Notes: generated by a model not told the origin, from the letters alone. 64,000 nt of DNA from an uncultured Succiniclasticum sp. (GCA_900544275.1 UQUU01000006.1:40742-104741), one strand, 5' to 3'. Shown: positions 5,822-29,033, numbered from the stretch's first letter. A program made the numbers and translations.

Positions 5822-5856
5822 ATAAAAATAACAGTGCCGTTTCCGACACTGTTATC
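5822..5856 (-). terminator. Rho-independent terminator downstream of yqeY
   Basis: Hairpin ataacagtg...cactgttat. On the minus strand it is followed by a UUUUUAU run. Confidence 0.5.
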
Positions 5857-5862
5857 AGGGTT

Positions 5863-6318
5863 TCATTGTAGCAAGCTGCGTACCGCCGCATTAATACGTT
5901 TTCCGTCTGCGCGGCCCTGAACCTGCGGCATTACCGCTTTCATGACCTTCCCCATATCCTGAGGACCTGCCGCACCGGTGGAAGCGATGGCTTCCTGTAC
6001 CAGCTTTGTCAACTCTTCGTCACTCATGGCAGCCGGTAAATAAGCCTTCAAAATTTCAATTTCAGCTTGCGTCTGACCGATCAGATCCTGACGCTGCGCT
6101 TTAGTAAATTCCGCCAGGGAATCCTCACGCATTTTTACCGCTTTCATAATGACAGCCAACACTTCATTTTCGGTAAGTTCAGCTTTGTTCTTACCGTTGA
6201 TCTCCGCATTGCGAATGTCCGACCGCACCATACGAATGACCTCCAAACGGAGTTTACCCGCTTCCCGGTCTTTCATCGCCTGCTTCATATCAGCCATTAA
6301 CTTTTCTTTTGTTGTCAT
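5863..6318 (-). CDS. yqeY: GatB/YqeY domain protein
   Basis: Full-length GatB/YqeY-type sequence. ATG at 6318 with GGAGG 8 nt upstream. Adjacent to rpsU, as in Bacillus. Confidence 0.8.
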   Translation of the reverse strand: MTTKEKLMADMKQAMKDREAGKLRLEVIRMVRSDIRNAEINGKNKAELTENEVLAVIMKAVKMREDSLAEFTKAQRQDLIGQTQAEIEILKAYLPAAMSDEELTKLVQEAIASTGAAGPQDMGKVMKAVMPQVQGRADGKRINAAVRSLLQ

Positions 6319-8653: not shown

Positions 8654-8839
8654 CTGTATTATTTCACCACCTTTATTTCCTAATATTTTCTTCAATAAAA
8701 ACCTTCGAATTTTGAATTTTCATTCTGTCTTTATTAGCTACAGAATTAACATAGATTCCCTGTTTAGATTCAAAAGTTTTTTATAGTTTAATCAACTTAC
8801 TATTGCATTCTGCAAAATTTGCGCAAAATATCTTATTAA

Positions 8840-11566: not shown

Positions 11567-12313
11567 TTATCTACCCTCACCGGGCCCCAGATTATCCGTT
11601 TCGTATAAAATCGCGGCGGCGACCACAAGACCTGCGGTCTCTGTCCGCAAGATCCGACGGCCAAGACTTACGGAAACACCGCCTGCCGCTGTCACAACAG
11701 CAATTTCCTCATTCGTCAGACCGCCTTCCGGACCAATCACCACGCTGATCCGTCGAGCTTTTTTATGCGCCTGCAACACGGCCTTAAGTCCCACCTGATT
11801 TTCACTTTCATACGCCGCCAAAAGCAGCTCCGGCTCTGCCTCCGCGATTGCCTCCGCTAACGGCATCACCGGATGGACCAACGGCACAATATCCCTTTTA
11901 CTTTGCTTCGCCGCCGCTTCCGCAATTTTAGCCCACCGCTCTGTTTTTTTCGCAGCCCGAGCTGCATCCAGGACCACAACCGAATGGGTCAACGCAACCG
12001 GATAAATGTCGGTCACGCCAATTTCCACAGCCTTTTGGACTACTGTATCCATTTTATCGCCCTTAGCCAAGCCCTGCAACAAAGAAATCTGCACTGTCGG
12101 TTCGCCGCTTTCCCGCAAAATTTCTATGACGCGAACAGTCACCTGATTCTCGCCCAGCCTGACGACTTCTCCTATAAAACTGATCCCATCATCCGACACG
12201 ACCTGCAATTTACTCCCCGGCTGCATACGCAGCACATCGATAATATGATGGGCATCCAAACCGGTTATATCCATTTCCTGCGCAAAGGGCTGTGCGATAA
12301 AAAAACGGTGCAT
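11567..12313 (-). CDS. rsmE: 16S rRNA (uracil1498-N3)-methyltransferase
   Basis: RsmE/YqeU family. Found in the conserved prmA/rsmE/mtaB neighbourhood. Confidence 0.85.
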   Translation of the reverse strand: MHRFFIAQPFAQEMDITGLDAHHIIDVLRMQPGSKLQVVSDDGISFIGEVVRLGENQVTVRVIEILRESGEPTVQISLLQGLAKGDKMDTVVQKAVEIGVTDIYPVALTHSVVVLDAARAAKKTERWAKIAEAAAKQSKRDIVPLVHPVMPLAEAIAEAEPELLLAAYESENQVGLKAVLQAHKKARRISVVIGPEGGLTNEEIAVVTAAGGVSVSLGRRILRTETAGLVVAAAILYETDNLGPGEGR

Positions 12314-12470
12314 AGGGAACCTCTTTCCTGTTTTATTGTTTTTTCTATTGTCTCTTTCCTATAATATCATCGTATGTAACTATCAGTGAATATCTTTGCA
12401 ATAACAGCATCGTGCGAAGACAACATCAATCACCATTTGCCAACGATTCACAATTTACTATATTGTTTAT

Positions 12471-12528
12471 TATACCATTTTTATTCTGCTGCAACAGTGA
12501 ACTTATGCGAAATATAGACACAAAAAAC
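12471..12528. repeat. About 58-bp segment homologous to the flank of the IS256-like element at 19109-19149, with a tataccattttta piece resembling a degraded IS256 inverted-repeat end
   Basis: aacagtgaacttatgcgaaatatagacacaaaaaac here versus aacagtaaacttatacgaaacacagacacaaaaaac at 19114-19149 (32 of 36 identical). Each copy is immediately followed by a terminator hairpin. Confidence 0.6.
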
Positions 12529-12552
12529 CGGCGCAGCCTGCGCCGGTTTTTT
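12522..12552. terminator. Bidirectional rho-independent terminator (A6-ccggcgca-gcc-tgcgccgg-T6)
   Basis: Perfect 8-bp GC-rich stem flanked by an A-run and a T-run. Lies between the decarboxylase gene and rsmE. Confidence 0.65.
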
Positions 12553-12665
12553 GTTCTTAGTATGTATCTCTTGTAATATCGCCTCTCACGGCGGATGCTC
12601 AGTCAACCGTTTTCCGATAAGGGTGTCTCACGTCCTTACCGCATTGAGAGGAGGACTACCTGAAA

Positions 12666-13799
12666 TTATTTACCCACAGGTCCAATCATAGCCAGCATGG
12701 TGCCTGCTGCTACAGCAGTACCGATAACGCCTGCTACGTTGGGGCCCATGGCATGCATCAGCAGGAAGTTGGAAGGATTGGCCTTCTGACCTACCACCTG
12801 CGATACACGGGCAGCCATCGGCACCGCCGATACGCCGGCAGAACCGATCAGCGGATTTACCTTACCGCCGGACGCAACCTTCATGATCTGTCCAAAGATC
12901 AGACCTAAAGCCGTACCGGCCGCAAAAGCAATCAAGCCGAGGCAGATGATCAGGATGGTCTGGTAATTCAGGAACTTATCAGCCTGCATGGTCAGGCCGG
13001 TACCTACAGACAGGAAAATCGTGACAATATTCATCATCGCATTCTGCGCCGTATCGCTTAAACGATCCAGGCAGCCGGCTTCTTTATACAGATTGCCCAA
13101 CATCAGCATACCAATCAAAGAGCATACCGGAGGCAACAGCAAAGAGATGAAAATCGTGGAGAAAATCGGGAATACGACACGTTCAAACTTGGTGACCGTA
13201 CGCAGCTGATCCATTTTAATGGAACGGTCTGCCTTGGATGTGCACAGCTGCATAATAGGCGGCTGGATCAGCGGTACCAAAGACATGTAAGAATACGCCG
13301 CTACAGCAATCGCCCCTAACAGATGAGGAGCCATCTTAATGGTCAGGTAAATAGCCGTCGGGCCGTCAGCGCCGCCAATGATGCCAATCGCAGCGGCTTC
13401 GCGCAGGTCAAAACCCAGCAGCATCGCGCCGATCAGGCAAACAAACACACCGCCCTGTGCTGCTGCACCCAGCAACAACGTCTTGGGATTCGCAATCAGC
13501 GGACCGAAGTCTGTCATTGCTCCTACACCTAAGAAAATCAACGGGGGGAATACTTCGTTGTGAATACCAAACAAAATAACCTGCATTACACCAGGTTCCG
13601 TAAAGAAACCGGTTTTGGGAACGTTGCCCAACAAGCAGCCAAACGCAATGTTGGACAGCAGCAACGGCTCGAAGCCCTTGCCAATTGCCAGGTATAATAA
13701 AACCAGACCAACGAGAAGCATAATCGCATTGCCGCCGGTCAGACCCTGGAACCCTGAATCAGCCCATACAGACTGCAGGGAAACTATGAGTGCGTCCAT
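12666..13799 (-). CDS. Na+-translocating decarboxylase beta subunit (OadB/GcdB/MmdB family)
   Basis: Polytopic membrane protein of the OadB family. ATG at 13799 with a GGAGG RBS. It is standalone, with no alpha or gamma subunit genes adjacent. Confidence 0.8.
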
Positions 13800-14189
13800 G
13801 AAAAATCCTCCATTCACTTAATATAATTAGGATATACAAAAAAGGTAATGAGACGGTTACCTTGATTGACATAGGAAAAGAACTGCAAGCCGCTTTCCGG
13901 GTCTATCTTTTGCAAAAAGCAAGTACTACTACTTTAGGACTATATTATTCATCTCTTCATTTTTATCATACTATTATACTACACCAGTAAATAAAATAAG
14001 TCAATAAAAAGATTTCAAAAAATCGGCTTAATCCCAACTATAATGCTTTATTGATACACGTTATCAGTTATTTCTCCTCTAATATTTCATTTTGATATAC
14101 ATAATTAGTATTACTACTTTATTATATCTAAAAGTTATATTTTACTCATTATTTAATAAATAGCAAATAAAAAATGAAAAATAACAAAC

Positions 14190-14236
14190 AAAAAAACAGA
14201 GTGTGTACCTTGTCAGGGATACTGCACTCTGTTTTC
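14190..14236 (-). terminator. Terminator downstream of adhesin 1, sharing the acaaaaaacagagtgtgtacc module with the terminator at 19143-19188
   Basis: Stem acagagtg...cactctgt with flanking A- and T-runs. Confidence 0.5.
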
Positions 14237-14377
14237 CAAATTTCAGCAAGAAACGATCAGGCTTACAACACCTTTTGTTCTACTGTTTCGTTAGATTGTT
14301 TCTTTTTTGCTTTGTTATGCCATTTTTTCTACTTCATTAACGAATACTGCTCCATCATGCGGCGGCAATCAAGGCTC

Positions 14378-17300
14378 TTACTTCTCTGCCAAAAGCTTCT
14401 CCAGCTTGGCATCCATCACTTTCATACGCTCCCACAACATCTCATTGTTTTTACGCAGCTCATCATTATCTCTACGTAACTCTACGTTGTCACTGCGCAA
14501 CGCGGTGTTATCCGCTTTCAGCTGTGCCACTTCCTTGACCAACTGCACTTTTGATGTAATGGCATGGGTCGGGCCTGTTTGTTTATCCAGCTTAAAGGTG
14601 ACGCCGGCATTAACCATGTTCTCACCGTTGCCAAAGGCTCCGCCGATGTTGAACATGGTCCGTTCGTCCGGGCGGTAGAAAGCACCCAAAGCCATGGAGT
14701 TCTGTCCTTTATAATGGCCCCAGCCCGCAGCCACGTCCAACTTGTCATCCGCATCAAAATCTACGGGATGCAAGGCAGCCAAAGCAGCAGCACCGGCACC
14801 CACCTTATCTACACGGCGGTCCACGTTATTCAGGCGATTAGAAATATGATTGATTTCCTTGCTGGTTTCTTCTTTTACTTTCTGCACCTGTCCAAAAGTA
14901 GCCGCATCCGTCTTGGATGTACCATCAGCCACATTATGAATCTGCTGGTTGTGCATATCCACATTGTTCTTAGTGATTACAGGCCCGTTATTAATGGTCA
15001 TCCCATCGTTGTTAATGGTGGTATCGCCGGCCTTTATCGTCTTAGTGGTCACGGTATCCTTGCCAATTACCGTTTCTCCTACGGTAATCTTTTCCTTTAC
15101 GGTTAACGTTTCCACTCCCGTGATGTTTTTAGCCAGTTTCACCTTTAACTCGCCGCTTTCGGATACTACCCCGATATTGTTATCCGTCAGCTCTGTAGCT
15201 CCGCCTTTAATAGCCAGCGTTTCGCCCAGTTTTTTATTGATGGCACTGCCTGAATCCCCGGCAAAATTAAGCCCCTTATTCACATCACCGGAAATAGTAT
15301 CCACTAACCCGCTTACATCAACACGATAATTCTTCGTTGCATCATTTTGCGTAAATTCGATTGTCTTAGTTGATGCATCATAGCTACCCCCAGTGGTATA
15401 GGTGTCCTTAGCTGAAATCGTATAGGTAGTCGTATGGGTATTCGTATCTTTCTTCACTGCTACAGTAACATTGTCACCACCGGACACTACCGTGTTTTCG
15501 ATTCCTAAGGCAGCTGTATCCACAGACAAGTTATAGCCCACTTTTTTGCCGTTTTCTACTTTATCCGTAATCTTGACAGTCCCATCTGCCGATGTCAACT
15601 GCGGCCCACTGACAGTATACTCCTTACCGCCTTTATTATTAGGTTTTTCTGTAACAGTCACATAGTCGCCGGCTACCACGGTGGTATGTTTTCCAGCCTC
15701 TCCGGCTGCGGTCGTAACAGTTTCCTGCAGCTTTTTCAGCTGTGCCACGTTGACAGCATCGGTGTCCTGTGTACCTGCCGCCACATTAGTAATCTGGCGG
15801 GTAATCGCCGAAGAGCCTGCCGCTCCGGTCGGAGTTGCCGCTTTACCTACAGAAACAGCGGCGGCCGTCGCTTTCCATGTTGCTGACGTATCCGCAGAAA
15901 CCGTATCGGTCGAAGGATCGTAGCCGGCAACCCCCTTATCAACAGAGGCAATAGAATCCGCACCAAGCGCTACGCCGCCATCTTTTTCTACATCCGTATT
16001 GTAGCCGAGCATCACCGCATTGCTTATGTTCGCCGTATGCGATTTAATCGGTACATTTTCCATCACCTTATATTTCTGTTCGAGAATAACATTGCCCGAA
16101 GCATCTTTCATCGTATACGTTTTCTCTACAGCCTTCTTTTCCGTGGCCATGGATCCAAGGATTACATTGTTTTTACCACCGTCCATATGGTGATAATCCC
16201 CAATCACTACATCAGCTGTACTGCCGGACATATTATTCCCGGTCCCCATCATAGATACACGTTCCACATTCCTGCCTGTATTCGCATATCCGTTAATCGT
16301 ATTATTGATACCGGGTGTATTTGCTGTACCTGTAAGGATATTTCCGGAACCGATGATCTGGGAATGGACGGCATAATCTGAAGTATTTCCGTTCCCCATG
16401 GTGACCACAGAACCGCCGCCGGTCGACATGGCCAGTCCCATCGCTTTCCTGATCTCATCATGACTAAACATTCCGTCTCCGCCGGCATATCCCTGTCCCC
16501 CAAATAATATGGCTTCACCCCAATGTTCGTTCATACTGTTTCCATTTTCATCGGTCGGCGCCGTCCCGAAAGAATGTGTAACGCTATTGCCCGCGCCGAA
16601 AACGAGTGCCCCATTGGCGCCTTCTGTTTTGTTCAGGGTACCGACGACGGTGTTTGCCATCCCATCATACTGATCCTCCGTATTTGACGACGCTACAGTA
16701 TTAAGACCGCCATAGACAGAAGCCAGATAGCCGTCAAAGCCGGAATCGCCTGCCTCCACAATGGATTTGATCCCTGTCACGGTCTCCTGCCAGCCATAAG
16801 CTTTTGCCCCATGGCCAAGAGCCACATTCATTCCGCCGCCGTCTCTGGTCCCGCTCTGGGCATGATACCCGACAACGACACTGGCATGTTTCTGCCCGAT
16901 ATCGGAATCAGCCTTTTCTTCCGGTGTCATGGAACCGATAACAACAGATTCTTTACTCGCCCCAACTTTCTGGTTATCCCCGATCACGATACCCGCGCCG
17001 GGATTGACCATTTCATTATTATTCCCGATGACGGTCAGGCTCTCATACCCTTTCATATAGGTATCGTTGCCTTCAATTTTATTTCCCTTGCCAATCACAA
17101 GGTCGGACACATTCTTCGTCCTTTCTTCCTGTTTCCCGGAAACCGTACCGGCATTTCTATCGGTAATCTTATTGCTGTCCCCGATAACGGTCTGGCCTTT
17201 GCTGTTTTCAACGGTATTCTCGGAGCCAATCACGGACACGTGTTCGGCCTTGGTTACGGTATTTTTGTAGCCATCAATCATGTTAAACTTACTAATAGCC

Positions 17301-18328
17301 CCAGATGTACCTTTCAACGTATTGTTCACACCAATAATTTGAGAAAGCTGGGTCCAATCCGCTGTATTTCCTCCGCCGATGGCAAGGGTGGCACCGCCGC
17401 TATTAGAATTTTTTACTGCTGTCATCAATGACTTCTGCAGCGCCTGTGCAGAATCTCCCCCAGTAGATGGAGCAGAAATAGAAGAAATGGAATTAGTAAT
17501 TTCATTTCCTGCGCCGAAGATGAGGGACCCGTTAGAATTAGCCGTTCTGTTCGCTGTACCGACGATGCTGTTCGCCACGCCAGAATACGCGGATGACGAA
17601 GTTGCCGATTCAATGCTGTTGAGAGAACCGTAGATATTAGCCCCCATGTTCTGTGTAACATAAGAAGACCAATTACTGCCATTATATTTCCCGGAAATAA
17701 TAGAATAGGTCCCGGTCACCGAAGAAAACGCTCCCTGATTATAGCTGTTCGCACCAAGGGTAGTAGCATTTATATTTACATTTCTCGACTTGACTTTCTG
17801 TACATCGGAGCCATCAATATCTACATCTCCAAGTCTTCCTATATATTTATGATCGCCAATCATGACGCTGCCGGATCGAGCATAAGTATTCTGCCCGATT
17901 GCCACACTGCTTGCCCATTTCTTTTCGTCTGACTGTCCGAATTTGAAGAACTTTTCCTGATTACCGTACATATTTTCAACAAAAGCATTCTTCCCAATAG
18001 CGATACTACCTTCCTGCATGACATAATCGTCAATCTGCGCGTGGTCACCGATAGCAATAGCACCATTAGTAGCTGCATTGTTTCTTAAACTAATATCATT
18101 CCCAATTTTGATATTCTGGTTGCCCACTTCCACAAATTTGTTCACACCATCAATGGCAGCAAACGCAGAGTAGGGAGCCAATAAAAATAATCCCACTACC
18201 CCTGCCATCACAAGAGTAGACAGACGATGTTTGCTGCTGGCACTCTTAGTATGATTCTTCGCCAGTTCAGATGCTACTACATAGCAGTTTTTTGCCTTGC
18301 TCCAAATAACTTTGTAGACTTTGTTCAT
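14378..18328 (-). CDS. Trimeric autotransporter adhesin (type Vc, YadA-like), TAA1
   Basis: Extended signal peptide MNKVYKVIWSKAKNCYVVASELAK, then repetitive head and neck repeats with several ...TRQITNVAAG..DTDAVNVAQLKKL connectors. YadA beta-barrel anchor at about 14585-14851 (VGAGAAALAAL..GENMVNAGVTFKLD). C-terminal 68-aa heptad/coiled-coil tail at 14381-14584 instead of an SLH domain. RBS AAGGAGAG. Confidence 0.85.
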   Translation of the reverse strand: MNKVYKVIWSKAKNCYVVASELAKNHTKSASSKHRLSTLVMAGVVGLFLLAPYSAFAAIDGVNKFVEVGNQNIKIGNDISLRNNAATNGAIAIGDHAQIDDYVMQEGSIAIGKNAFVENMYGNQEKFFKFGQSDEKKWASSVAIGQNTYARSGSVMIGDHKYIGRLGDVDIDGSDVQKVKSRNVNINATTLGANSYNQGAFSSVTGTYSIISGKYNGSNWSSYVTQNMGANIYGSLNSIESATSSSAYSGVANSIVGTANRTANSNGSLIFGAGNEITNSISSISAPSTGGDSAQALQKSLMTAVKNSNSGGATLAIGGGNTADWTQLSQIIGVNNTLKGTSGAISKFNMIDGYKNTVTKAEHVSVIGSENTVENSKGQTVIGDSNKITDRNAGTVSGKQEERTKNVSDLVIGKGNKIEGNDTYMKGYESLTVIGNNNEMVNPGAGIVIGDNQKVGASKESVVIGSMTPEEKADSDIGQKHASVVVGYHAQSGTRDGGGMNVALGHGAKAYGWQETVTGIKSIVEAGDSGFDGYLASVYGGLNTVASSNTEDQYDGMANTVVGTLNKTEGANGALVFGAGNSVTHSFGTAPTDENGNSMNEHWGEAILFGGQGYAGGDGMFSHDEIRKAMGLAMSTGGGSVVTMGNGNTSDYAVHSQIIGSGNILTGTANTPGINNTINGYANTGRNVERVSMMGTGNNMSGSTADVVIGDYHHMDGGKNNVILGSMATEKKAVEKTYTMKDASGNVILEQKYKVMENVPIKSHTANISNAVMLGYNTDVEKDGGVALGADSIASVDKGVAGYDPSTDTVSADTSATWKATAAAVSVGKAATPTGAAGSSAITRQITNVAAGTQDTDAVNVAQLKKLQETVTTAAGEAGKHTTVVAGDYVTVTEKPNNKGGKEYTVSGPQLTSADGTVKITDKVENGKKVGYNLSVDTAALGIENTVVSGGDNVTVAVKKDTNTHTTTYTISAKDTYTTGGSYDASTKTIEFTQNDATKNYRVDVSGLVDTISGDVNKGLNFAGDSGSAINKKLGETLAIKGGATELTDNNIGVVSESGELKVKLAKNITGVETLTVKEKITVGETVIGKDTVTTKTIKAGDTTINNDGMTINNGPVITKNNVDMHNQQIHNVADGTSKTDAATFGQVQKVKEETSKEINHISNRLNNVDRRVDKVGAGAAALAALHPVDFDADDKLDVAAGWGHYKGQNSMALGAFYRPDERTMFNIGGAFGNGENMVNAGVTFKLDKQTGPTHAITSKVQLVKEVAQLKADNTALRSDNVELRRDNDELRKNNEMLWERMKVMDAKLEKLLAEK

Positions 18329-18429
18329 AGCGTATTTCTCTCCTTTTCTAAACTGATTTATATCTCTATACGAATTGCTTTATTATAGACAATTATATTC
18401 CCGTTTCACAAGTGCGTCAACTTTTTCAA

Positions 18430-19108
18430 GTCAAGTCCAAATTTGTGTGTAAATTCCCTTCCGGTATAGAATTTATTATGCAACCAGCAGTTGGCGCTGT
18501 TGTTGCGCTACGTGAATCAGTGAAAGCCTGGTCCCCGAATTCATTAGTTTCTGGTAATTTCCCGGGCTAAATATCTTCCTCTTTGCCTGACAGGCGTTGT
18601 GGTGCTCCACCAATACAGAGCCCATAAGACGAATCACCGAGTCGCCGTTGGGGAAAATAGCAATCACTTTAGAACGACGTTTCAATTCCTTTCCTTCTCC
18701 ATGGTAGCACTGTGGAGCATCTCTTGTAACTCGACCTGCAAACCCGATTGGTCTCCCGTACTTTAAAGTAGGTTGCATCCCCCGTCACAAAAGGGCAGTA
18801 CTCGGTAAGAGCCCGATTTCGAAACGTTTCTACTTCCTTGTCCAGCTCTTTCCAAAGGCTGGATACCGCCGATTTAGATATACTGGTACCGCATACTGTT
18901 TAAAGCGTTTTGCCATAGGCTTTTGAAAGCTTCATTACGATCTTGTGCCAGTAACTGTAGAATTTCTTCCTGATTTAGTGTAATATTGAGTTGAGCCATT
19001 TTGCTTACCTCCAGTATTATGTTGGTGTGGTAATCTACAGTATACCAGAAGGTTGAGCAGATGACTCGTTTTGATTTTTTGAATTTACACCATTATACGG
19101 ACTTTATC
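18430..19108 (-). mobile_element. Internally deleted IS256-family (mutator-type) insertion sequence remnant
   Basis: The reverse complement of 19081-19108 reads gataaagtccgtataatggtgtaaattc, matching the IS256 terminal inverted repeat GATAAAGTCCGTATAATTGTGTAAAA from memory. A degenerate inverted copy lies at 18430-18456 (gtcaagtccaaatttgtgtgtaaattc). Between them sit transposase N- and C-terminal fragments only. Total length is about 680 bp versus about 1.3 kb for an intact element. Confidence 0.65.
18476..18999 (-). pseudogene. IS256-family transposase pseudogene
   Basis: N-terminal 41 codons (18874-18999, MAQLNITLNQEEILQLL..YQYI, with a GGAGGT RBS) and a C-terminal fragment (18476-18778, ..KVIAIFPNGDSVIRLMGSVLVEHH..). 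They are separated by stops and a frameshift, and the middle about 250 aa including the DDE region is absent. Confidence 0.6.
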
Positions 19109-19149
19109 GCCGTAACAGTAAACTTATACGAAACACAGACACAAAAAAC
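19109..19149. repeat. IS-flanking segment duplicated at 12489-12528
   Basis: See the feature at 12471-12528. It is directly followed by the adhesin 2 terminator. Confidence 0.6.
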
Positions 19150-19188
19150 AGAGTGTGTACCCGTTAAAAGGCACACGCTCTGTTTTTT
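19143..19188 (-). terminator. Terminator downstream of adhesin 2
   Basis: cagagtgtgtacc-N7-ggcacacgctctg followed by a T6 run. It shares its 5' half with the adhesin 1 terminator. Confidence 0.5.
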
Positions 19189-19305
19189 AGGTTTTTGTTC
19201 ATTCGCTATTGTCTGGGAACCATTGTACAAAACTGCGAACCGGGATGTGACTGCGCAACACCGCTTCTCATCTTATACAACAAAACTCAAATCTGCACAA
19301 CCATG

Positions 19306-22300
19306 TCATTTCGCCGCTACCTGAATTTTAGAGCCATATGTATCTCGTTCCTGCGTATTTTCATTATTCACGCGTACACGTTCAATCTTGTTCCTGTCAT
19401 TATCCTTACCGTATACACGATCTACACGGATTCGCCCCATTTCCGGCGCAAATTCTTTCAACGCACGAGCATCTACATTAGCTCCGTTTTCCATGGCGCG
19501 GTACAAAAGAGCAGCAAATTCATACCGGGTCATCATTCGGTTGCCGGCAAAGCTGCCATCCGGATACCCTTTAATGATGCCGTTGCCGGCCAGTTTCGCA
19601 ATGTATTCATACGCCCAGTGATTTTCCGGTACATCCGGGAACAGCTTCGTCATTTCCGGATCCAGCATCCAGTTCCCGTTCGCACGGGCCGCCTTCAGTT
19701 CCGTAATTTCCTTACGCAGATCCATGATTTCGCGAGCCATGGCTGTGCGGCTGGTAGTAATATGGCTCTTGCGATCCAGCGCAAAAGTCACGCCGGCATT
19801 CACCATATTTTCTCCGCCACCTACGGAAGCCCCAATATTGAACATCGTATTTTCGTCAGGACGGTAGAACGCGCCGATTGCCCCTGCATGAGAGCCTTTA
19901 TAGCTGCCATAGCCGGCGGATACGTTCCACTTATCATCGGGGTCGAAATCCAGCGGATGCATGGCTGCCAAAGCCGCCGCACCGGCGCCCACTTTGTTGA
20001 CACGACCGTCCAGTTTGCTGATCTGGTTGCCCAACTCGTTCAGGCCCTTGCCCGCATCTTCTGCCAGTTTGCCCAGTTGACCAACGGTAGCCGCATCATG
20101 CGCATCAACACCGTCTGCCACGTTGGTGATCTTCTTATTACCTGCGTCAATGCCATTTTTCGTAATGGTTACACCTGGCTTACCATCGGCGCCCCGGACA
20201 GAGATGCCGTCCTTATTTACCTGGGTACCGCCGGCATTAAGGCTGTCCACATTCAGATTCTTATTCAGCGCAACCGTATATTTATTTTCATTCTGACCTT
20301 CGGTCTTGTTCACGACAATATTTTCATCGCCGCTTTCAACCGTAGTGATCTTCGCGTTTGCACTCATCTGATCCATGGCCAACTGCAGCTGTTCTTCGGT
20401 AGCTGCCCGCTTACTGGTAGCAAAACCTGCCACGTTCAGGGACGTATTCGTCAAGCCGGTAACTTCGCCTTTGCCATCTTTACCATTCACCGCAACGCCG
20501 CCCACCTGAATCTTTTTATCAAGGCTGACTGTGTAGGTAGTGGAACCGTCGGCTTCTTTCTTATCTGCAACTTTCACACCGGTAACGGCATCTCCAGTAA
20601 CCTGTACCTTGTTCGCTTTAATTTGACCTTCCAGCGTATCAACTTTATCAAGTTTATCTTTCGCCGCCTTATTCAGGCCAATCTTGACATCATTGCCGTC
20701 TGCAGTCACTTCCGTATAGCTACCCGCTACGAAATTTACTACGTTGTCTTTACCAATGACGCGCTCATTTTTGCCATTCACCTGCAGCTTCCAGGCGCTG
20801 GCCTGCGACAAGTTACTGGTAATATTTGTAATAGCCGTATTCCCGGTCAGGTCAATCTTAGAGCCGTCAATACCATACTTCACGGTATTCCCTTCGCGTT
20901 TTACCGTCAGGCCTTTGTCCGCTTCGGCCACGTCAAACCTGATTGCCGGCGTTTCGTTGCCGTCCAGCGCGATCTTCGCGCCTGTGCTCTCCGTTCCCGC
21001 TCTCAGCTCAAAACCGCGGCTCAGATTGTTGGTGATGTTCGTCACGGTCGTGTTACTGCTCAGGTCGATATTCTTACCCAGATTGGCGTTAGCCTTTACA
21101 GTCACGGTAGCGCCATCAGACGCATGGGCCACATCCACATCAATTTTGCCGGCTTCGCCTTGGAACTTGATGTTCTGTTTGGTATCGCCGCCCAACGCGA
21201 TGTTCTGTTTCTCGCCTGCAGCGTTGCTGACGGTGAAGCCGTCTTGCAGCGCCTTAATATCAGTGGTAACGTCGGCATTGACAGCTTTCAGCTGACGCAG
21301 ATTCACGGCATCAGTGTCTTCCGTGCCGTCGGCCACGTTGATGATCTGGCGCAGGAAGGGGATTTTGCGGCCCCCCAATCCCTCATAGACGCCACCCACA
21401 GAAACAACTCCGTTGACGACACTGTTAGATCCCATGGCGTGGTACACTTGCGCGCCCCCAATATCGTCTTTGAAGTACAGTTTTTGACCGCTGAAAGGAG
21501 CGACAACTTTCTTGCCATCGGCATATTTCGTCTGTTCATCTATTGGTTGTTCTGGGTGTTCTGGGTCAACTATTGGGTGTTTGGGGTCAACCTGGCGCCA
21601 TGGCCTTGTCCACGAGCCGAGACCGACGCTGCCAGGGCGATCCACCTGGGACTTATGGCCCAGTGCCACACCGCCGAAGTCCATGAAAGACGTGCTTTCG
21701 GGCAGGTTCAGTTTGCCGTTGCCGACCGATGCCCCGGGACCGAGAGCAACGGAGTAACGACCTTTCACAACAACATCGGAACCAATACCGACGGAGGAAA
21801 TAGGATGAACCGTTTCTTCCCCATCGTTTTTAAACAGCGCTTTGGTTGAGGCGTTGGATCCGATAATAATATTTTGGGTATTTGCGGCGTGAGCCTTATA
21901 GCCCATGGCGATGGTGCCGTTGCCTGCGGCATAGGCCTGCCGTCCCACGGCAAGACCGGCATCATCCCGATTGTCGTTTCTGCTGTATCGATTGTAGTTT
22001 CCGATGGCTTTCGCACCGTCACCGATGGCAATTCCGTAAGACTTTTTCTCCTTTGTTGTGTGATTCAGCAGCGCCCCGTAGTACCCCGCTGTGGCTTTGC
22101 GCCCGATGGCAACGCTGCCTTCGGTGCCGGCCTGCGAACTGTCGCCTACGGCCACTGCCCCGTCGCCTGCGATGTTGTGTGCTGTAGTTAAGCTCGCTCC
22201 TCCCCCCAAAGATTCCGTAGCAAAACGAGTGCCTGTCACAGCGTTCTTGCCGATGGCCACACTGCCGTTGCCCGCCGCCGAAGCGTCGCTACCCAGCGCC

Positions 22301-25300
22301 ACGGCATGGTCGCTGCTGATCTTCTCTGGCGTTTTCCACGGCTCAACTTCGAGCTCCAATGTCCGGGCTTTCTGTCCTACGGCGATAGAACCAGTGCTTT
22401 TTGCTCCGTCGTTATTCCAGTTAGTACCCACGGGATTGGCGCTGTCGTCGGCCTTGACGGAGAAGTAGTGTACAGCCCCCTCAGTCACCTGTTTATTCAG
22501 CGCCTTGAGCTGTGCCACGTTGACGGCGTCGGTGTCTTTCGCACCTGCGGCGAGGTTGGTGATCTGGCGGGTGTTATCGGCATTGCCTACGGATACAGCA
22601 GCCTTGCCAGATGTCCATACTGGATTCTTTTTCTCTGTGGATGATTTTCCGGTGGACGGATCATAACCAGACACGCCCGCTTCGGTATTAGCCACGGAGT
22701 CGGCGCCCAGAGCTACCCCGCCGGCTTTCTGCACGTCTGCGTTGTGCCCGATCAGCACGGCGTCGGCGGCTTTCAGTTCCGTTCCGTTTTCTGTGTCAGC
22801 CGCTCCGAGTACGATGCTTCCGTTCGCTCCCGTCAGTTTCCTGTTGTCACCGAGCAAAATGGCATTTTTCGTATTGCTCAGCTTATTGTTGGAGCCGATG
22901 ACGGACACGTGTTGAACGTTTTCCGCCGTGTTCGCAAAGCCGTCAAGCATGTTATATTCGCTTGGCGTATTACTCGTCCCTGTCAATTTGTTGCCCACAC
23001 CCACTACTTTGGAAAGCAAGGCGTAGTCCGCCGTATTGGCTCCGCCGATGGCCAGTACGGATCCGCCGCTTTCTTTCACCATACCGCCAAGTACATCAAT
23101 CATGTCGGTATTATCACCGTTATCGATTGCTTTTTGTAACGCCTCGCTCGCCGCATTTACATCAAAGGGCGTAGTACCGGCCGATACCTCTCTGTAAGAA
23201 TTGGTGACTTTATTGCCGGCGCCGAAGATCAGTGCGCCGTTGGCGTTCTCTGTCCTGTTCGCCACACCGACAATGCTATTGGCTACTCCGTCAAAGCGAA
23301 CGTCGTCTTTTCCGGCAATCGTATTAAACGAGCCATATATAGAGGACGTCGCTCCTTGGAATCCTGTTGTGTATCCGGTTGCCCCGTTCCCCTGAATCTG
23401 GTTAAACGCACCGGTTGCAGCAGAAGCCGTCCCGTTTGCCACTGCGCCCGCGCCGGCTGCCAGTGCCATGCCGCCCTTCGCGCCGTCATTGTTGTAGTTG
23501 CCCACGGGGCTATTACCATCATTCACATGGTAATAGTGGGTACGTTGGTTGTCTGTTTTTTGGCTCAGCGCTTTCAGCTGCGCCACGTTGACGGCGTCAT
23601 TATCAGCAGCACCGCCGGCCACATTTGTGATACGACGATAATTTTTAGCAACTGTCGTATCGCCTACCTTGTATTCTTCATTGCCAACGGATACCACACC
23701 ATTTTCTTTTGCGAAGGCCTCATTGGATAAATAAGCCTTGGTTGCTACGTCATCTGCAATATTGGCAAGTGAATTTGCACCGAGAGCCACAGAGTTATCG
23801 GAAGCGGCACGCGCATGGGAGCCTATCGCTGCTGATTTTGTTACAGAAGTTGTCCCATCCAGCGTGGAGGTAATCGCATAATCGCCTAACGCCATGGAAC
23901 TTTCACCGATAGAACGTGCCCAATGGCCGATCGCCACGGAATCCTTGCCTTCCGCTCTTGCCTGCTTGCCAAGCGCATTTGCATAATGACCGATCGCCTT
24001 TGACATGACACCGATTGATACCGTATTTGTATCAAAAGCTTCTGCCCCTGCACCCAAAGCGGTGTCCTGATAGCCAAATGCTTTTGCACCAAATCCCACC
24101 GCCGTGGAATTCATCGTTTCCTTGCCCGGCGCAACGACAGTATCATCATCCACTGGCGTAAAGTAATTATTGGAAACACCGATATTCGGCGTAGTTCCAT
24201 CGGGTGCCTGCTTACCGATATAGGCACTTCGTCCTATCGCCGTGCCATTCCATGCAGTAGCATCCGTCGTCGCTTTTGCGCCGAATACTGCCGTATGGGC
24301 CGCGCCTGCCTTAGACTGTGCGCCAACAGCAAGAGATACATCACCCAAAGCCTTTGCCTCACGCCCATATGCTGCAGAATCATTAGTTTTTGCATCGGAA
24401 AGAATACCAATCGCCAGGGAATTGGCTCCTTCCGCCTTTGCACCATACGCCATGGCAACTGCTGTAGAAGCCTTTGCTTCTGATTGACGTCCAATAGCTA
24501 CACCAAAACCACCTGTAGCCTTTGCACCTAAACCTATAGAAATATCCTGTACGCCTGCTTCTGCACCACTACCTATAGCAATAGCAGCTTCACCAGTTGT
24601 CTTGGGCGCAGAAAACTCTGCTCCATCACTTCCTAATGCGATGCTATGTTTTCCATCTGCTTTTGCTCCACGGCCAATAGCTATCGCTTTCGCTCCTGTA
24701 GCCCCATCATTATTCCAGTTCGTATTCTCAGGCTTGGCGCTGTCGTCGGCAGCCACGGAGAAATAGTGCACGGCGCCTTCGTCAACTTTGCCGCTCAGCG
24801 CTTTGAGCTGTGCCACGTTGACGGCGTCGGTGTCTTCAGTGCCGGCGGCGAGGTTGGTGATTTGGCGGGTGCCGTCGTTTCTGCCCACGGACACGGCGCC
24901 GAAAACGGATTTATACGAAGCGAGCAGTTCGTTTTTCTTGCTTTTGGCAGTGTTTAAAGTGTTTTTGGCGTTCCTCAGAGCTTGTTTATTGGCGTCGCTC
25001 TGGTCTGCGTCGTAGGCCTGCTGTGCTGCGGTCACGGCGGTCTGTGCGTTGGCGATATTCGTCTCGGCCGCCGTCAGTTCGGCGGTTTTCCCCAGTGCGG
25101 CAGCCACGGCCGCGTCGTTGGCAAATGCGGCGCCGGTAACGGGGTCGTAACCTAAAACGTCCTTGCCACGGTTCGCTACAGACTTGGCGCCCAGCGCCAC
25201 ACCGCCGGCTACCATTGCCTGAGAATCATATCCCAGCGCCAGTGCCTGTTTAGCTTCAGCGCTACTCCAGGCGCCCAGAGCCACGCTGCCTGACGCCTTT

Positions 25301-27543
25301 GCCTGAGAGTCATATCCCATTGACGCAGCCATTAGAGCCTGGGCTTTGCTCTCCACGCCCAAAGCTATCGTGTAGTCTTCGGTGGCTGCGGATTCGGTCC
25401 CCACAGCCAACGCACCGTAGCCGGAAACGTTCAGATCGTTGCCTAAAGCCACGCCCTTGTCTTCATCGCCGCTCACTGTATTGTGATGTCCGAAAGCGAC
25501 ACCGCCGTAAGCTGATACCGTTGTATTCGTGCCCACAACCACACCGCCGCCGTTTACCGTGTTTGTGAGGCCCACAACCACGTTCTCGTCATCGCCGTGC
25601 CCTTTGAATTTCGTATACTTCCACTCAGTGCCGACCCGCTCTGCCGTATAGCCGACAAGGTTTCCTACCCCGATAACGGTGTTGCGTTCACCGGCTACGT
25701 GAGTCAATAGTTTGTCGGTACCATTCTGATAGTCTGTGCCGAAAACCGCATTCCGCGCGCCTTCCACCGTCAAATTTTGTCCGACCACAATGCTGTTGTT
25801 TTCGCCGTCCCTCTCAACACCGCGGGCATTAGGTTGATTAGAAAGTGTATTGTTATTTCCGAGGACAGTGCTGTTTTTGGCTTTCTCAGAAATGGAAGAA
25901 GAAATGCCGATAACCATACTGTCCGCAGCCTTGGCGCCATCGTTGGCGTAGTTGGTCCCGGCGCCCTGTTGATCGCTCTTGACGGAATAATAGTGCACGG
26001 CGCCTTCGTCAACTTTGCCGCTCAGTGCCTTGAGCTGCGCCACGTTGACGGCGTCGGTGTCTTCGCTGCCTGCGGCTACGCCCGTAATCTGGCGGGTCCG
26101 GCCCGTAGAAGCGTCGCCCACGGACACGGCGGCGACGCCGGATTTCCAAGACGCCAGCATGGTGCGCTTTTCTTCCTGAGAGGCGTTCAGTTGTCTGGTC
26201 GCCTCATTAAGCTCGGTTGCAGCCTGCGACCAGGCGTCATACAGTTGCCCCGACAAAGTGCCGTCCTGATTATTATAGTAAGCAGCCTTTGCGGTGTCAT
26301 AAGCAGCTTTTTTCTCGTTATAAGTTGCCTGTTGGGCGTCAATGGTCGTATTCAGCGTTTCCAGCTCGGAGCTTTTACCCAATACGGTGGCAATTTCGGC
26401 GTCACTGGCATAGACGGCGCCGCTTTTCGGGTTGTAGCCGCGCGTAAAGCCGGCGCGGTCGGCTATGGATTTGCTGCCGAGAGCCACGCTGTCGGCAAGC
26501 TGCGCCGAGGCGTCTTTGCCGATGGCGGCGGCGTTCTTGGCATCAGCCGACACGAGCCCGCCACTGAGAGCCGTGGAGTTGTCCGCCAAAGCTTTGGAGC
26601 TATTGCCGGCGGCGAGACTGGCGTCGCCCTTTGCCTCCGTCCAGCCGTTGAGCGCCACGGAATCCTGGCCGCTGGCCTTTGTGGAATGGCCTAAAGCGAC
26701 GGAGTTTTTGCCGAAAGCTTTCGTAGAATCGCCCATGGCGACGGAATTTTTGCCGCTGGCAATCAGTTCGGGTTCTTCACTGGGGTTGCGTCGCCACCCT
26801 TCGCCGAAGGCGAAGGAGTTTGCGCCTGCAGCGAGAACGCCGCGGCCGAAGGCAAAGGCATTGTCGTTGGTAGCCATGCTTGCAGAGCCGCCAGAAAAGG
26901 CGTTCAGTCCGTCGGCGACGGTATAGTGACCTGTGGCGATGGCGTTGGTTTTCGCCGCGGCCGTGGCGAAGCCGAGAGCGGTGGCATAGCCGTAATCTTT
27001 ATGGCCGTCCGCCTTTTTGAACCGCGCGCCGCCCGTAGGCGCCAGTTCGGTCGCGTAGGTCACGTTGATGACATTGCCGTCGGCGTCTTTGATTTCGTTC
27101 CGTTCCAGCTCGATGCCGGCAAGGGTCAGACAGCCGAGGGCCGTGTTGCCGCCGTCAAGTCCCAGCAGCGTGTCGGACCTGTTTGTCCCCACCTGATTGT
27201 AACGACCGTAAATATTTTGCATATATTGACTGAACGTGCCGTAGTTTTGCACGCTGTTGTCGATAATAAAGCCGTCGATATTGACGATGCGGCTGAACTT
27301 AGAGTCATCGACTTTGCTACTGTCAATAGTAATAGCGCCGATTTTGCCGACATTGTCAGTCGGCGCAAGATCTGTGGCATAGACCACCCCATGTCCGGCA
27401 GTCAACATAAAGGCTGTCACCAGCGCTGCCAAAGAAATAGCAGGTTTTGCCGATTTGCATTTAGAATGTCTCTTTGCCAGCTCTGAAACCACCACATAAC
27501 AGGCTTTTACTTTGCTCCAGATCACCTTGTAAATTTTATTCAT
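19306..27543 (-). CDS. Giant trimeric autotransporter adhesin with C-terminal SLH domain, TAA2
   Basis: Extended signal peptide MNKIYKVIWSKVKACYVVVSELAK. At least 5 near-identical connector repeats (..GTRQITN[LV]AAG.EDTDAVNVAQLKALSGKVDEGAVHY[FY]SV). YadA anchor at about 19776-20040. SLH domain at about 19492-19680 (NGNWMLDPEMTKLFPDVPENHWAYEYIAKLAGNGIIKGYPDGSFAGNRMMTRYEFAALLYRAM), the usual outer-membrane-to-peptidoglycan tether in Negativicutes. The track ORF extends to 27552. Confidence 0.85.
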   Translation of the reverse strand: MNKIYKVIWSKVKACYVVVSELAKRHSKCKSAKPAISLAALVTAFMLTAGHGVVYATDLAPTDNVGKIGAITIDSSKVDDSKFSRIVNIDGFIIDNSVQNYGTFSQYMQNIYGRYNQVGTNRSDTLLGLDGGNTALGCLTLAGIELERNEIKDADGNVINVTYATELAPTGGARFKKADGHKDYGYATALGFATAAAKTNAIATGHYTVADGLNAFSGGSASMATNDNAFAFGRGVLAAGANSFAFGEGWRRNPSEEPELIASGKNSVAMGDSTKAFGKNSVALGHSTKASGQDSVALNGWTEAKGDASLAAGNSSKALADNSTALSGGLVSADAKNAAAIGKDASAQLADSVALGSKSIADRAGFTRGYNPKSGAVYASDAEIATVLGKSSELETLNTTIDAQQATYNEKKAAYDTAKAAYYNNQDGTLSGQLYDAWSQAATELNEATRQLNASQEEKRTMLASWKSGVAAVSVGDASTGRTRQITGVAAGSEDTDAVNVAQLKALSGKVDEGAVHYYSVKSDQQGAGTNYANDGAKAADSMVIGISSSISEKAKNSTVLGNNNTLSNQPNARGVERDGENNSIVVGQNLTVEGARNAVFGTDYQNGTDKLLTHVAGERNTVIGVGNLVGYTAERVGTEWKYTKFKGHGDDENVVVGLTNTVNGGGVVVGTNTTVSAYGGVAFGHHNTVSGDEDKGVALGNDLNVSGYGALAVGTESAATEDYTIALGVESKAQALMAASMGYDSQAKASGSVALGAWSSAEAKQALALGYDSQAMVAGGVALGAKSVANRGKDVLGYDPVTGAAFANDAAVAAALGKTAELTAAETNIANAQTAVTAAQQAYDADQSDANKQALRNAKNTLNTAKSKKNELLASYKSVFGAVSVGRNDGTRQITNLAAGTEDTDAVNVAQLKALSGKVDEGAVHYFSVAADDSAKPENTNWNNDGATGAKAIAIGRGAKADGKHSIALGSDGAEFSAPKTTGEAAIAIGSGAEAGVQDISIGLGAKATGGFGVAIGRQSEAKASTAVAMAYGAKAEGANSLAIGILSDAKTNDSAAYGREAKALGDVSLAVGAQSKAGAAHTAVFGAKATTDATAWNGTAIGRSAYIGKQAPDGTTPNIGVSNNYFTPVDDDTVVAPGKETMNSTAVGFGAKAFGYQDTALGAGAEAFDTNTVSIGVMSKAIGHYANALGKQARAEGKDSVAIGHWARSIGESSMALGDYAITSTLDGTTSVTKSAAIGSHARAASDNSVALGANSLANIADDVATKAYLSNEAFAKENGVVSVGNEEYKVGDTTVAKNYRRITNVAGGAADNDAVNVAQLKALSQKTDNQRTHYYHVNDGNSPVGNYNNDGAKGGMALAAGAGAVANGTASAATGAFNQIQGNGATGYTTGFQGATSSIYGSFNTIAGKDDVRFDGVANSIVGVANRTENANGALIFGAGNKVTNSYREVSAGTTPFDVNAASEALQKAIDNGDNTDMIDVLGGMVKESGGSVLAIGGANTADYALLSKVVGVGNKLTGTSNTPSEYNMLDGFANTAENVQHVSVIGSNNKLSNTKNAILLGDNRKLTGANGSIVLGAADTENGTELKAADAVLIGHNADVQKAGGVALGADSVANTEAGVSGYDPSTGKSSTEKKNPVWTSGKAAVSVGNADNTRQITNLAAGAKDTDAVNVAQLKALNKQVTEGAVHYFSVKADDSANPVGTNWNNDGAKSTGSIAVGQKARTLELEVEPWKTPEKISSDHAVALGSDASAAGNGSVAIGKNAVTGTRFATESLGGGASLTTAHNIAGDGAVAVGDSSQAGTEGSVAIGRKATAGYYGALLNHTTKEKKSYGIAIGDGAKAIGNYNRYSRNDNRDDAGLAVGRQAYAAGNGTIAMGYKAHAANTQNIIIGSNASTKALFKNDGEETVHPISSVGIGSDVVVKGRYSVALGPGASVGNGKLNLPESTSFMDFGGVALGHKSQVDRPGSVGLGSWTRPWRQVDPKHPIVDPEHPEQPIDEQTKYADGKKVVAPFSGQKLYFKDDIGGAQVYHAMGSNSVVNGVVSVGGVYEGLGGRKIPFLRQIINVADGTEDTDAVNLRQLKAVNADVTTDIKALQDGFTVSNAAGEKQNIALGGDTKQNIKFQGEAGKIDVDVAHASDGATVTVKANANLGKNIDLSSNTTVTNITNNLSRGFELRAGTESTGAKIALDGNETPAIRFDVAEADKGLTVKREGNTVKYGIDGSKIDLTGNTAITNITSNLSQASAWKLQVNGKNERVIGKDNVVNFVAGSYTEVTADGNDVKIGLNKAAKDKLDKVDTLEGQIKANKVQVTGDAVTGVKVADKKEADGSTTYTVSLDKKIQVGGVAVNGKDGKGEVTGLTNTSLNVAGFATSKRAATEEQLQLAMDQMSANAKITTVESGDENIVVNKTEGQNENKYTVALNKNLNVDSLNAGGTQVNKDGISVRGADGKPGVTITKNGIDAGNKKITNVADGVDAHDAATVGQLGKLAEDAGKGLNELGNQISKLDGRVNKVGAGAAALAAMHPLDFDPDDKWNVSAGYGSYKGSHAGAIGAFYRPDENTMFNIGASVGGGENMVNAGVTFALDRKSHITTSRTAMAREIMDLRKEITELKAARANGNWMLDPEMTKLFPDVPENHWAYEYIAKLAGNGIIKGYPDGSFAGNRMMTRYEFAALLYRAMENGANVDARALKEFAPEMGRIRVDRVYGKDNDRNKIERVRVNNENTQERDTYGSKIQVAAK

Positions 27544-27667
27544 TGTGCACATCCCCTTCCTCTTATACTCGACGTAATCGTTGTAGAATAGTGGAAATAA
27601 CTTTTCTTAATGAAATTATAATCAGTATGATTCTGTCTGTCAAATTTTAATTTTCAGTTTTTTTATT

Positions 27668-27875: not shown

Positions 27876-29033
27876 TTATTTAAACAAGTCTTTGATTTTG
27901 TCCATAAACCCTTTTTCTTCCGGGTTGATGTTGTCTTTGGCCACGTCGGCAAAGTTTTGCAGAGCGGTCTTTTGGCGTTCGTTCAGTTTGGTGGGTACCA
28001 CCACCTTGATGCGTACCAGCTGATCGCCCCGTCCGGAGCCCCGCAAACGGGGGATACCTTTACCCCGCAGGCGCATGACACGTCCGGGTTGGGTCCCTTC
28101 CGGTATTTTCATGACCACTTTGCCGTCCAGGGTGGGCACTTCCACTTCTGCGCCCAGAGTGGCCTGGACGATGTTGATGGGGACTTCACAGTATACGTCG
28201 TTGCCGTCCCGTTCAAAGAATTTATGCCGTTTGACGAAGAGGTATACATACAGATCGCCATGGGGGCCGCCTTTGGCTCCGGCTGCCCCTTCGCTGGCCA
28301 CCCGCAGGCGGGAACCGTCGTCCACGCCGGCAGGCACTTTCACTTTCAGGGTCTTGACTTTTTCTACGGTGCCGCTGCCATGACAGTCGTGGCAGGGGTC
28401 GGATACGATCTTCCCTTCCCCGTGGCATTTAGGACAGGGACGCACGGTCTGCATCTGCCCCAACATGGTGTTTTGGACCACGCGGATCTGACCGGTGCCG
28501 TGGCAATCCGGACAGGTCTCCACTTTGGAGCCGGGTTCCGCCCCGGTACCGTGGCAATGGTCACACTGCTCGTCCCGGGAGAGGGAAATCTCTTTTTCTA
28601 CACCGAAAGCCGCTTCTTCAAAGGTCAGGTGCAGGTCAAAGCGCAGGTCCGCCCCGCGCTGAGGGCCCCGGTTGGCCGCTCCGCCGCCCCGGCGTCCACC
28701 GGCGCCGCCGAAGAACATGTCGAAAATGTCTTCCATACCGCCGCCGCCAAAACCGCTGAAGCCCTCAAATCCGCCAAAGCCGGCGGCTCCCGGGCCACCG
28801 CCGTTTTCAAAGGCCGCCATGCCGAACTGGTCATACTGGGCGCGCTTTTGTTCATCGGAAAGCACGCTGTAGGCTTCGCTGCATTCTTTAAATTTTTCTG
28901 CCGCTTCGGGGTTATCCTTGTTTACGTCAGGATGGTACTTGCGCGCCAGTTTCCGATATGCTTTTTTGATATCGTCGGCGCTGGCGTCTTTAGCGACGCC
29001 CAGCACCTCGTAAAAATCTCGTTTTTCTGCCAA
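27876..29033 (-). CDS. dnaJ: Molecular chaperone DnaJ
   Basis: J-domain (HPD), G/F region, four CxxCxGxG zinc-finger repeats and a C-terminal domain. The start is TTG. Confidence 0.95.

Follow-up and report, generated by a model that had tools for sequence, protein, structure and literature searches.

A decayed IS256-family element at the edge of a strain-variable adhesin block in a Succiniclasticum-like gut bacterium

Organization of the locus

We analyzed a stretch of 64,000 nucleotides from an uncultured Succiniclasticum sp. (GCA_900544275.1 UQUU01000006.1:40742-104741), called the window in the following, in which a 680-bp remnant of an insertion sequence (IS) of the IS256 family separates two genes for trimeric autotransporter adhesins, TAA2 and TAA1. 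The remnant is very probably a dead, so far unnamed IS256-family copy with natural ends, situated at the edge of a strain-variable adhesin block, and it more likely than not marks a recombination joint. The minus strand carries every gene surrounding it. The genes and the main features are given below, with positions counted from the first letter of the window.

18429-19108, minus strand: IS256-family remnant, 680 bp, between TAA2 and TAA1
14210-19142, minus strand: variable block, 4,933 bp, with a 34-nt flank, the IS remnant, the TAA1 promoter, TAA1 and the TAA1 3' region
19306-27552, minus strand: TAA2, the resident trimeric autotransporter adhesin, 2748 aa, with an SLH C-terminus
14378-18328, minus strand: TAA1, trimeric autotransporter adhesin, 1316 aa, with ESPR, YadA stalk and YadA anchor and without an SLH domain (Pfam)
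29056-30903, minus strand: dnaK
27876-29033, minus strand: dnaJ
12666-13817, minus strand: oadB (OAD-beta)
11567-12313, minus strand: rsmE

The host is a Succiniclasticum-like member of the Acidaminococcaceae, a Negativicute; the named members of its DnaK 90%-identity cluster are metagenome-assembled genomes (MAGs) of Succiniclasticum sp. After rsmE, the gene order continues on the minus strand with prmA and then a MiaB/MtaB-like gene. No tRNA genes were found, and the matches from Rfam, searched with the gathering score over the whole window and with E <= 1 over 12300-14400 and 18300-19320, were all sub-threshold and driven by the terminators.

Ends and identity of the element

Both ends were compared with those of IS256 itself, using the copy in the S. 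aureus plasmid pSAP017A (L098) as the reference; it is 1324 bp long and runs from GATAAAG... to ...GGACTTGACT.

19081-19108, minus strand: left terminal inverted repeat (IRL), GATAAAGTCCGTATAATGGTGTAAATTC, with subterminal TGTAAA; 24/28 identical to the IRL of IS256
18429-18456, minus strand: right terminal inverted repeat (IRR), ...GAATTTACACACAAATTTGGACTTGACT; 22/28 identical to the IRR of IS256, with the terminal 11 nt identical

Read as the reverse complement of 19081-19108, the IRL has a single occurrence in the window, where shuffled sequences give an expectation of 0. Positions 1-17 are all identical to the left end of IS256, and the published IS256 end primers also match here (PMC4207318). 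The original prediction, made from the same DNA, had seen an almost exact IS256 terminal inverted repeat at this place, and the comparison with the genuine IS256 and its primers bears this out. It had also placed a degenerate inverted partner at 18430-18456. The partner does exist, but it begins at 18429, and with 22 of 28 positions shared with the IS256 IRR it cannot be called degenerate. It is a normal imperfect right end of the IS256 type, because it matches that of IS256 and because independent copies (L011, L093 and L096) share the same right end. Within one element, the agreement between IRL and IRR is 19/28 in the window and 17/28 in IS256. Since IS256 terminates in ...GACT, the element is taken as 18429-19108, a length of 680 bp.

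From these ends, 28-nt imperfect terminal inverted repeats (the family range is about 24-30 bp) with TGTAAA at both of them, the element belongs with the IS256 family, of which the subterminal TGTAAA is a feature (PMC7780238). Its coding fragments are of the Mutator/IS256 transposase type, as recognized by Pfam PF00872 and NCBIfam NF033543. Other properties of an active member are lost. In place of about 1.2-1.5 kb with one transposase open reading frame (ORF), there are 680 bp with four out-of-frame pieces, and the 8-bp (occasionally 9-bp) target-site duplication is missing: the flanks GTTACGGC and TGAAAAAG match at 1 of 8 positions, which is consistent with a rearrangement joint.

Transposase fragments and internal deletions

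A first homology search returned only fragments of at most 266 aa. The closest full-length relative that we reached, via P0004, is a 1391-bp element on contig L093 (ENA ERZ28576323). It has the same ends as the window element and is full length, but is frameshifted at a CQFHF motif; it also has a near-perfect target duplication (GTAGGCTA / GTAGGCCTA), whereas the window copy has none. In a blastn alignment, positions 1-216, 208-367, 357-416 and 417-680 of the window element correspond to 1-216, 480-639, 908-967 and 1129-1391 of the L093 element, with nucleotide identities of 93-98%. The original prediction had estimated about 680 bp instead of about 1.3 kb, in good agreement with 680 bp here against 1391 bp in L093 and 1324 bp in IS256. 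The pieces of the transposase gene, with codon numbers of the full-length protein, are as follows.

18892-18999, minus strand: transposase piece 1, codons 1-36 (tblastn against the 412-aa transposase of L028, 72% identity)
18874-18999, minus strand: 41-codon ORF that contains piece 1 and spans the first deletion junction
18742-18901, minus strand: transposase piece 2, codons about 128-176, frame-shifted relative to piece 1 (PF00872 132-180, E = 1.6e-10)
18693-18752, minus strand: transposase piece 3, codons about 271-286 (QSGLQVELQEMLHSATMEK; full-length 908-967, 93% identity)
18479-18692, minus strand: transposase piece 4, codons 341-412, KELKRRSKV... to the stop (PF00872 343-374, E = 8.9e-6)
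18476-18778, minus strand: 100-codon ORF that contains piece 4

Three internal deletions thus shorten the element from about 1391 bp to 680 bp. They remove codons 36-127 (the DNA-binding region), 177-270 (with the second catalytic Asp) and 287-340 (with the catalytic Glu), with junctions at short repeats that are direct or nearly so, such as CAATCGGGT at both edges of deletion 2. The residues D167, D233 and E341 of IS256 correspond to D165, D231 and E338 here. D165 alone is kept, within the VTGDATYF motif of piece 2, while D231 and E338 are in deletions 2 and 3, and the DDE triad is therefore not intact. The DNA-binding residues of IS256 are Y111-R118 (PMC7780238), and the equivalent region is also deleted. 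As the deletions take away the DNA-binding region and two catalytic residues, the window copy cannot make transposase.

When stitched together, the fragments match PF00872 (Transposase_mut) with E = 4.3e-17. On the NF033543 model (IS256 family transposase), which has a cut-off of 150 bits, the intact L028 protein scores 358 bits, the repaired L093 transposase 351 bits and the stitched window fragments 54 bits. The ends, Pfam, NCBIfam and the L093 alignment hence agree on an IS256-family element in decay, its ends intact but its catalytic core largely gone, as originally predicted. The prediction had further described only the first 41 and the last 80-100 codons of the gene; the loss of the core holds, but the count of two does not, since Pfam, tblastn and the L093 alignment give four pieces.

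Relatives, alleles and mobility

The same insertion site, with identical flanks, was found in a metagenome contig (L088), where the element is 997 bp long and keeps positions 1-330, 354-766 and 1122-1391 of the full-length sequence. Each of the two alleles retains segments missing from the other, and descent of the window copy from the L088 allele was rejected for this reason. The alleles are complementary, and therefore a near-complete element must once have been at the site and have decayed independently in different lineages. At a second locus of the same species, between the ilv genes and a TonB-receptor gene, there is an 868-bp derivative (L096) without a target duplication, and in another sample this locus has a 5'-truncated copy (L011). 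The internal deletions of the L088, L096, L014 and L011 alleles differ from one to the next.

These copies bear on the question whether the remnant belongs to a set of non-autonomous deletion derivatives, similar to miniature inverted-repeat transposable elements (MITEs), that retain the two ends and depend for movement on an intact transposase supplied in trans from elsewhere in the genome. Both ends are indeed intact, many relatives are internally deleted with their ends kept (P0001, P0039, L034, L088 and L096), and the first deletion of the L096 copy at the other locus has its right-hand breakpoint in common with the window copy. Short Logan contigs with TAA1 start about 28 nt inside the right end, and these breaks imply that the end is repeated in those samples. 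Against this, the 41-aa ORF spanning the deletion junction occurs only at the TAA2-IS-TAA1 locus (10/10 of the places listed, from 22 contigs read), and therefore there is no sign that the 680-bp derivative has moved. The copies at the two loci have different deletions, and neither the window copy nor the L096 copy has a target duplication. For the common breakpoint, descent from a shared deletion 1 was set aside: two adjacent 9-mers, AAACGCTTT and AAACAGTAT, both resemble AAACACTTT at the right breakpoint and explain the recurrence. Among the loci compared, the same derivative was not seen at several loci with target duplications. In addition, no intact copy of this particular IS was found, as L093 is frameshifted and the nearest intact transposase, that of L028, belongs to an element only 73-79% identical. 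We therefore regard mobilization as a MITE-like derivative as improbable.

The wider searches gave only distant relatives. Scanning the GTDB species genomes for the IRL core returned 65 loci in many Firmicutes, none of them more than about 80% identical to the element, and therefore the species representative apparently has no exact match. Against the PLSDB plasmids, blastn of the element gave only a 72% match, between its left end and an IS256-family element of Lachnospira eligens. The repaired L093 transposase is 41.5% identical to that of IS256 and 48.8% identical to that of the L. eligens element.

Three further observations concern the relatives themselves. IS256-family copies with internal deletions but preserved ends are unusually frequent among the relatives in gut Firmicutes (L034 1544-2167; P0001; P0039). 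Positions 1-6000 of L093 hold a nest of at least three Transposase_mut copies beside a SCIFF/radical-SAM pair, a neighborhood that suggests a clostridial host for the 93-98% identical IS. In contig L014, the ilv-side left flank of the second locus is joined to the TAA1 right flank (5031-5899 against L096 3810-4677). As it is possibly an assembly chimera, this contig was not used as evidence for rearrangement.

The flanking repeat and the region upstream of rsmE

The left flank of the remnant has a second copy in the window, close to rsmE.

19109-19149, minus strand: left flank of the IS, a T-run and 34 nt with homology to the stretch between the oadB terminator and rsmE
12488-12528, minus strand: resident 41-nt copy, between the oadB terminator and the rsmE promoter
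12469-12477, minus strand: predicted extended -10 (TGGTATAAT) of the rsmE promoter, conserved in L109, L110, L111 and L112

The original prediction had noted that about 40 bp recur at 12489-12528 with 32 of 36 identities, and that both copies are accompanied by terminators. Both statements were confirmed. The full repeat covers 12488-12528 and 19109-19149 with 85% identity around the 32/36 core, two copies being present in the window where 0 are expected; each copy begins, on the coding strand, with the T-run of a terminator, and terminator-like hairpins adjoin both. The homology between the two copies stops exactly at the IS end. The resident copy is at the same position in L001-L010, L012, L014-L015 and the metagenome contigs L087 and L089. 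In a related lineage (L109/L110, RsmE 90% identical), the orthologous 41-mer is at the same place and matches both window copies at 37 of 41 positions, and therefore the copy beside the IS looks like the orthologue of a related lineage.

Could the 41-nt similarity be a common intergenic repeat, like the repetitive extragenic palindromic (REP) elements, with no relation to the IS? The terminators adjoining both positions would suit this. However, the 64 kb of the window contain just two copies, and the motif was found nowhere else in the window, in 86 fetched loci or in one scan of JGI metagenomes, whose three matches were two upstream of rsmE and one adjoining the IS. Many dispersed copies, as in a genome-wide repeat, were thus not seen within this range, and we consider such an origin extremely unlikely.

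The resident copy had been described as preceded by an eroded IS end. The sequence in question, tataccattttta (12469-12481), is the reverse complement of AAAAATGGTATAAT. Its likeness to the IRL is at chance level, with a shuffle p of 0.28 and equal scores in 90 of 530 AT-rich windows. On the other side, four lineages have TGGTATAAT conserved in front of rsmE, and two of them are without the 41-mer. Judged by this conservation, 12469-12477 is a predicted extended -10 element of the rsmE promoter and not an IS scar.

A separate observation was made in the same spacer. About 100 nt from the oadB stop to the terminator are almost invariant in four lineages whose RsmE is only 74-90% identical (window 12555-12665, minus strand; L109 3822-3985; L111 1227-1392; L112 44-210), and the remainder of the oadB-rsmE spacer is not alignable across them. 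RNAalifold gives a multi-helix fold of -52.6 kcal/mol for this stretch, with too little variation for covariation and no Rfam match. It could be a conserved RNA element of the 3' untranslated region.

The TAA1 promoter

The ends of IS256 form hybrid promoters, in which an outward -35 is combined with a -10 in the flank, according to a passage of PMC7780238 citing Maki & Murakami 1997. Such a role had been proposed for the IS end in front of TAA1. The right-end tip has an outward TTGACT, and TTTACA lies further in, but there is no usable -10 hexamer 16-18 nt past either of them, and none is listed in our scan. Instead, a complete candidate promoter is found beyond the element.

18392-18420, minus strand: TAA1 promoter-like site, TTGACG-17-TATAAT, 11/12, starting 8 nt beyond the IS end

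It is the best sigma-70-like site in the scan of 12300-19400, has no overlap with the IS and is also conserved in L088, L090 and L092. From the sequence, a hybrid promoter is not predicted for TAA1.

The strain-variable block

Single-adhesin strains define the block. Between dnaJ and oadB there is a single adhesin gene in 9/10 of the listed places carrying the exact RsmE, and these loci track the window to 19141 (or 19135) and resume at 14209. The block of 4,933 bp, which most strains lack, has an exact 19-nt repeat at its boundaries, reading AAAAAACAGAGTGTGTACC on the plus strand.

19143-19161, minus strand: 19-nt exact repeat, copy 1, the 3' arm and T-run of the TAA2 terminator at 19143-19190
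14191-14209, minus strand: 19-nt exact repeat, copy 2, the 3' arm and T-run of the TAA1 terminator

The block is thus located within the terminator region of the resident adhesin gene, with the IS at its left edge. In the TAA1 terminator, the 3' arm is identical and the 5' arm has diverged. The block has a GC content of 46.2%, compared with 52-56% in the neighboring genes. All TAA1-bearing contigs that reach far enough upstream carry the IS remnant there. The two-adhesin haplotype is widespread, with an internal divergence of 2-3% and different states of IS decay. A second IS copy or IS end across TAA1 is absent from the window, which has a single IRL, a single IRR and no more than one set of transposase fragments, and the right boundary of the block is the 19-nt terminator repeat. 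The block thus does not have the structure of a composite transposon or of a translocatable unit flanked by IS copies.

The C-terminus and 3' region of TAA2 are 97.8% identical to those of the single-adhesin strains, TAA2 being an allele of their one adhesin. TAA1 and TAA2 share 40-58% amino acid identity in patches, no detectable nucleotide similarity, and no homology on comparison of their upstream regions. Because of the lack of nucleotide similarity, TAA1 is an added gene and not a recent duplicate. This decides against a duplication mediated by the IS as the event that built the two-adhesin array. The model of the original prediction combined this duplication with an eroded second IS end at 12488-12528 and a hybrid promoter for TAA1. 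The 41-nt repeat does exist directly beside the IS, the target duplication is missing as that model would have it, and hybrid promoters at IS256 ends are on record in the passage cited above. Nevertheless, with no nucleotide similarity between the adhesins, an 'eroded' end that scores as chance and coincides with the predicted rsmE promoter, and an 11/12 promoter outside the IS, the full model is largely refuted and has very little chance of being right. What survives of it is the IS at a rearrangement joint, given the absent target duplication and the left-flank homology that ends at the IS end.

Some observations on the adhesins stand by themselves. The resident adhesin between dnaJ and oadB (window 19306-27552; positions about 240-7960 in L001-L010) has a length of 2097 to 3825 aa depending on the strain, with several strains having it split into two ORFs, and its locus is a hypervariable, mosaic surface-protein locus. 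TAA1 has variants of 1256, 1316 and 1319 aa, and some strains have it as an interrupted gene (335+967 aa and 581+718 aa; L102, L104 and L108). The SLH C-terminal domain is found in TAA2 and the single-adhesin alleles; TAA1 is without it. Elsewhere in the window, the MiaB/MtaB-like gene and the HIT gene are separated by a 489-aa gene with Schlafen/AlbA_2 and HATPase_c_4 domains (7226-8695, minus strand). This gene is found in L002, L005 and L009 and absent in the other seven loci listed, and it is a second strain-variable insertion of the window.

Origin of the block

We account for the position of the IS by a recombination joint, because the flanks lack a target duplication and the left-flank homology runs no further than the IS end. 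That the joint was made by an event such as recombination between two IS copies with different outer flanks is the reading we lean towards. In this picture, two IS copies with different outer flanks would have recombined, leaving the IS as the joint; and, with less confidence than for the joint, the block would have been brought in from a related lineage. On the right it would have been joined by terminator homology, and on the left at the GTTTTTT run common to both terminators. Today the remnant would be an inert spacer between the TAA2 terminator and the TAA1 promoter.

Several points weigh against this interpretation. The 34-nt flank is short, and the confidence interval on its 15% divergence from the resident copy is wide. 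A donor arrangement for the block was not found, and the route of its arrival is a model. Contig L014 may be either a real IS-IS recombinant or a chimera of the assembly (4.5x coverage, with the last ~85 bp of the IS copies identical). The remnant may have an effect on TAA1 transcription. Finally, the event may have run in the opposite direction, which is possible and deserves to be weighed separately.

In that case, the two-adhesin arrangement would be ancestral and the single-adhesin haplotype would have arisen by deletion of 14210-19142 between the 19-nt repeats, so that the IS would not be a recent carrier of TAA1. The single-adhesin sequence is exactly the window minus the block and one repeat unit, as such a deletion would leave it. 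The wide distribution of the two-adhesin haplotype, with its internal divergence, its differing IS decay states and its three TAA1 lengths, also points this way. The lower GC content of the block does not, nor does the 34-nt flank, which has the look of a foreign paralogue, nor the TAA1 terminator, whose diverged 5' arm and identical 3' arm are what a crossover is expected to leave. Moreover, the question concerns direction only, and an earlier event of the kind we favor is still required. We hold an ancestral two-adhesin arrangement to be a possible but distinctly less probable account.

Returning to arrival of the block through an IS joint, a bolder version would make the unit of 34 nt, IS, promoter, TAA1 and terminator an adhesin cassette that moves between Succiniclasticum lineages. 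IS-IS recombination would excise a circle (or segment), which would then integrate through recombination in the conserved adhesin terminator. The exact structure of the window, with its foreign copy of the rsmE-upstream flank and without a target duplication, would result if a circle with the order IS, TAA1, terminator and 34 nt entered at the 19-nt arm. The predicted junction of the donor or circle is CAGTATCCCTGACAAGGTACACACTCTGTTTTTTGTGTCTGTG (the TAA1 terminator, then the foreign 34 nt), and the predicted donor arrangement is the oadB terminator, then GTGTCTGTGTTTCGTATAAGTTTACTGTTACGGC, then the IS or the rsmE promoter. This cassette is speculative and, in our estimate, rather unlikely. 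A donor without oadB, with the order TAA, terminator, 34 nt and rsmE, was also considered and is unsupported, as the adjacency of oadB and rsmE is conserved in the lineages with 90% and 77% identical RsmE.

Significance

Decayed IS copies are common, and the remnant is in itself routine and inert. Its value is that of a marker, which dates and delimits a 4.9-kb strain-variable block. The block gives some Succiniclasticum-like gut strains a second trimeric autotransporter adhesin, and this is a polymorphism of the adhesin repertoire. The remnant also tells us that ends of the IS256 type, nearly identical to the staphylococcal ones, are in circulation among gut Negativicutes and Clostridia. In annotation, the ORFs at 18874-18999 and 18476-18778 should be read as transposase wreckage, and the sequence upstream of rsmE as a putative promoter instead of an IS scar. 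If the cassette were real, IS256-family elements and common terminators would jointly shuffle surface adhesins in gut Negativicutes.

Comparison with known systems

The nearest intact system is the element of an Acidaminococcus sp. MAG (L028, DXYB01000006.1). Its transposase of 412 aa is intact, it has the IRL core in common with the window element and it is collinear with all the alignable window fragments. With 73-79% nucleotide identity over the aligned stretches and 48-72% amino acid identity to the fragments, it is a different IS species.

The type element, IS256 of Staphylococcus and Enterococcus, shares with the window element the tips GATAAAGTCCGTATAAT... and ...GGACTTGACT and the subterminal TGTAAA, and its transposase, likewise a Mutator/IS256-type protein, has the D-D-E motifs in the same contexts. 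The window copy differs from it in its 680 bp, the loss of D231 and E338, the missing 8-bp duplication and its Negativicute host. With respect to the hybrid promoters of IS256, TTGACT at the right-end tip is common to both elements, and TATAAT is present in the left end; unlike in those promoters, the window flank offers no usable -10, and TAA1 has a promoter-like site of its own 8 nt outside the element. Taken together, the window element is a defective and so far unnamed member of the IS256 family, mechanistically nothing new, which combines IS256-like ends with a transposase that is about 41% identical to that of IS256.

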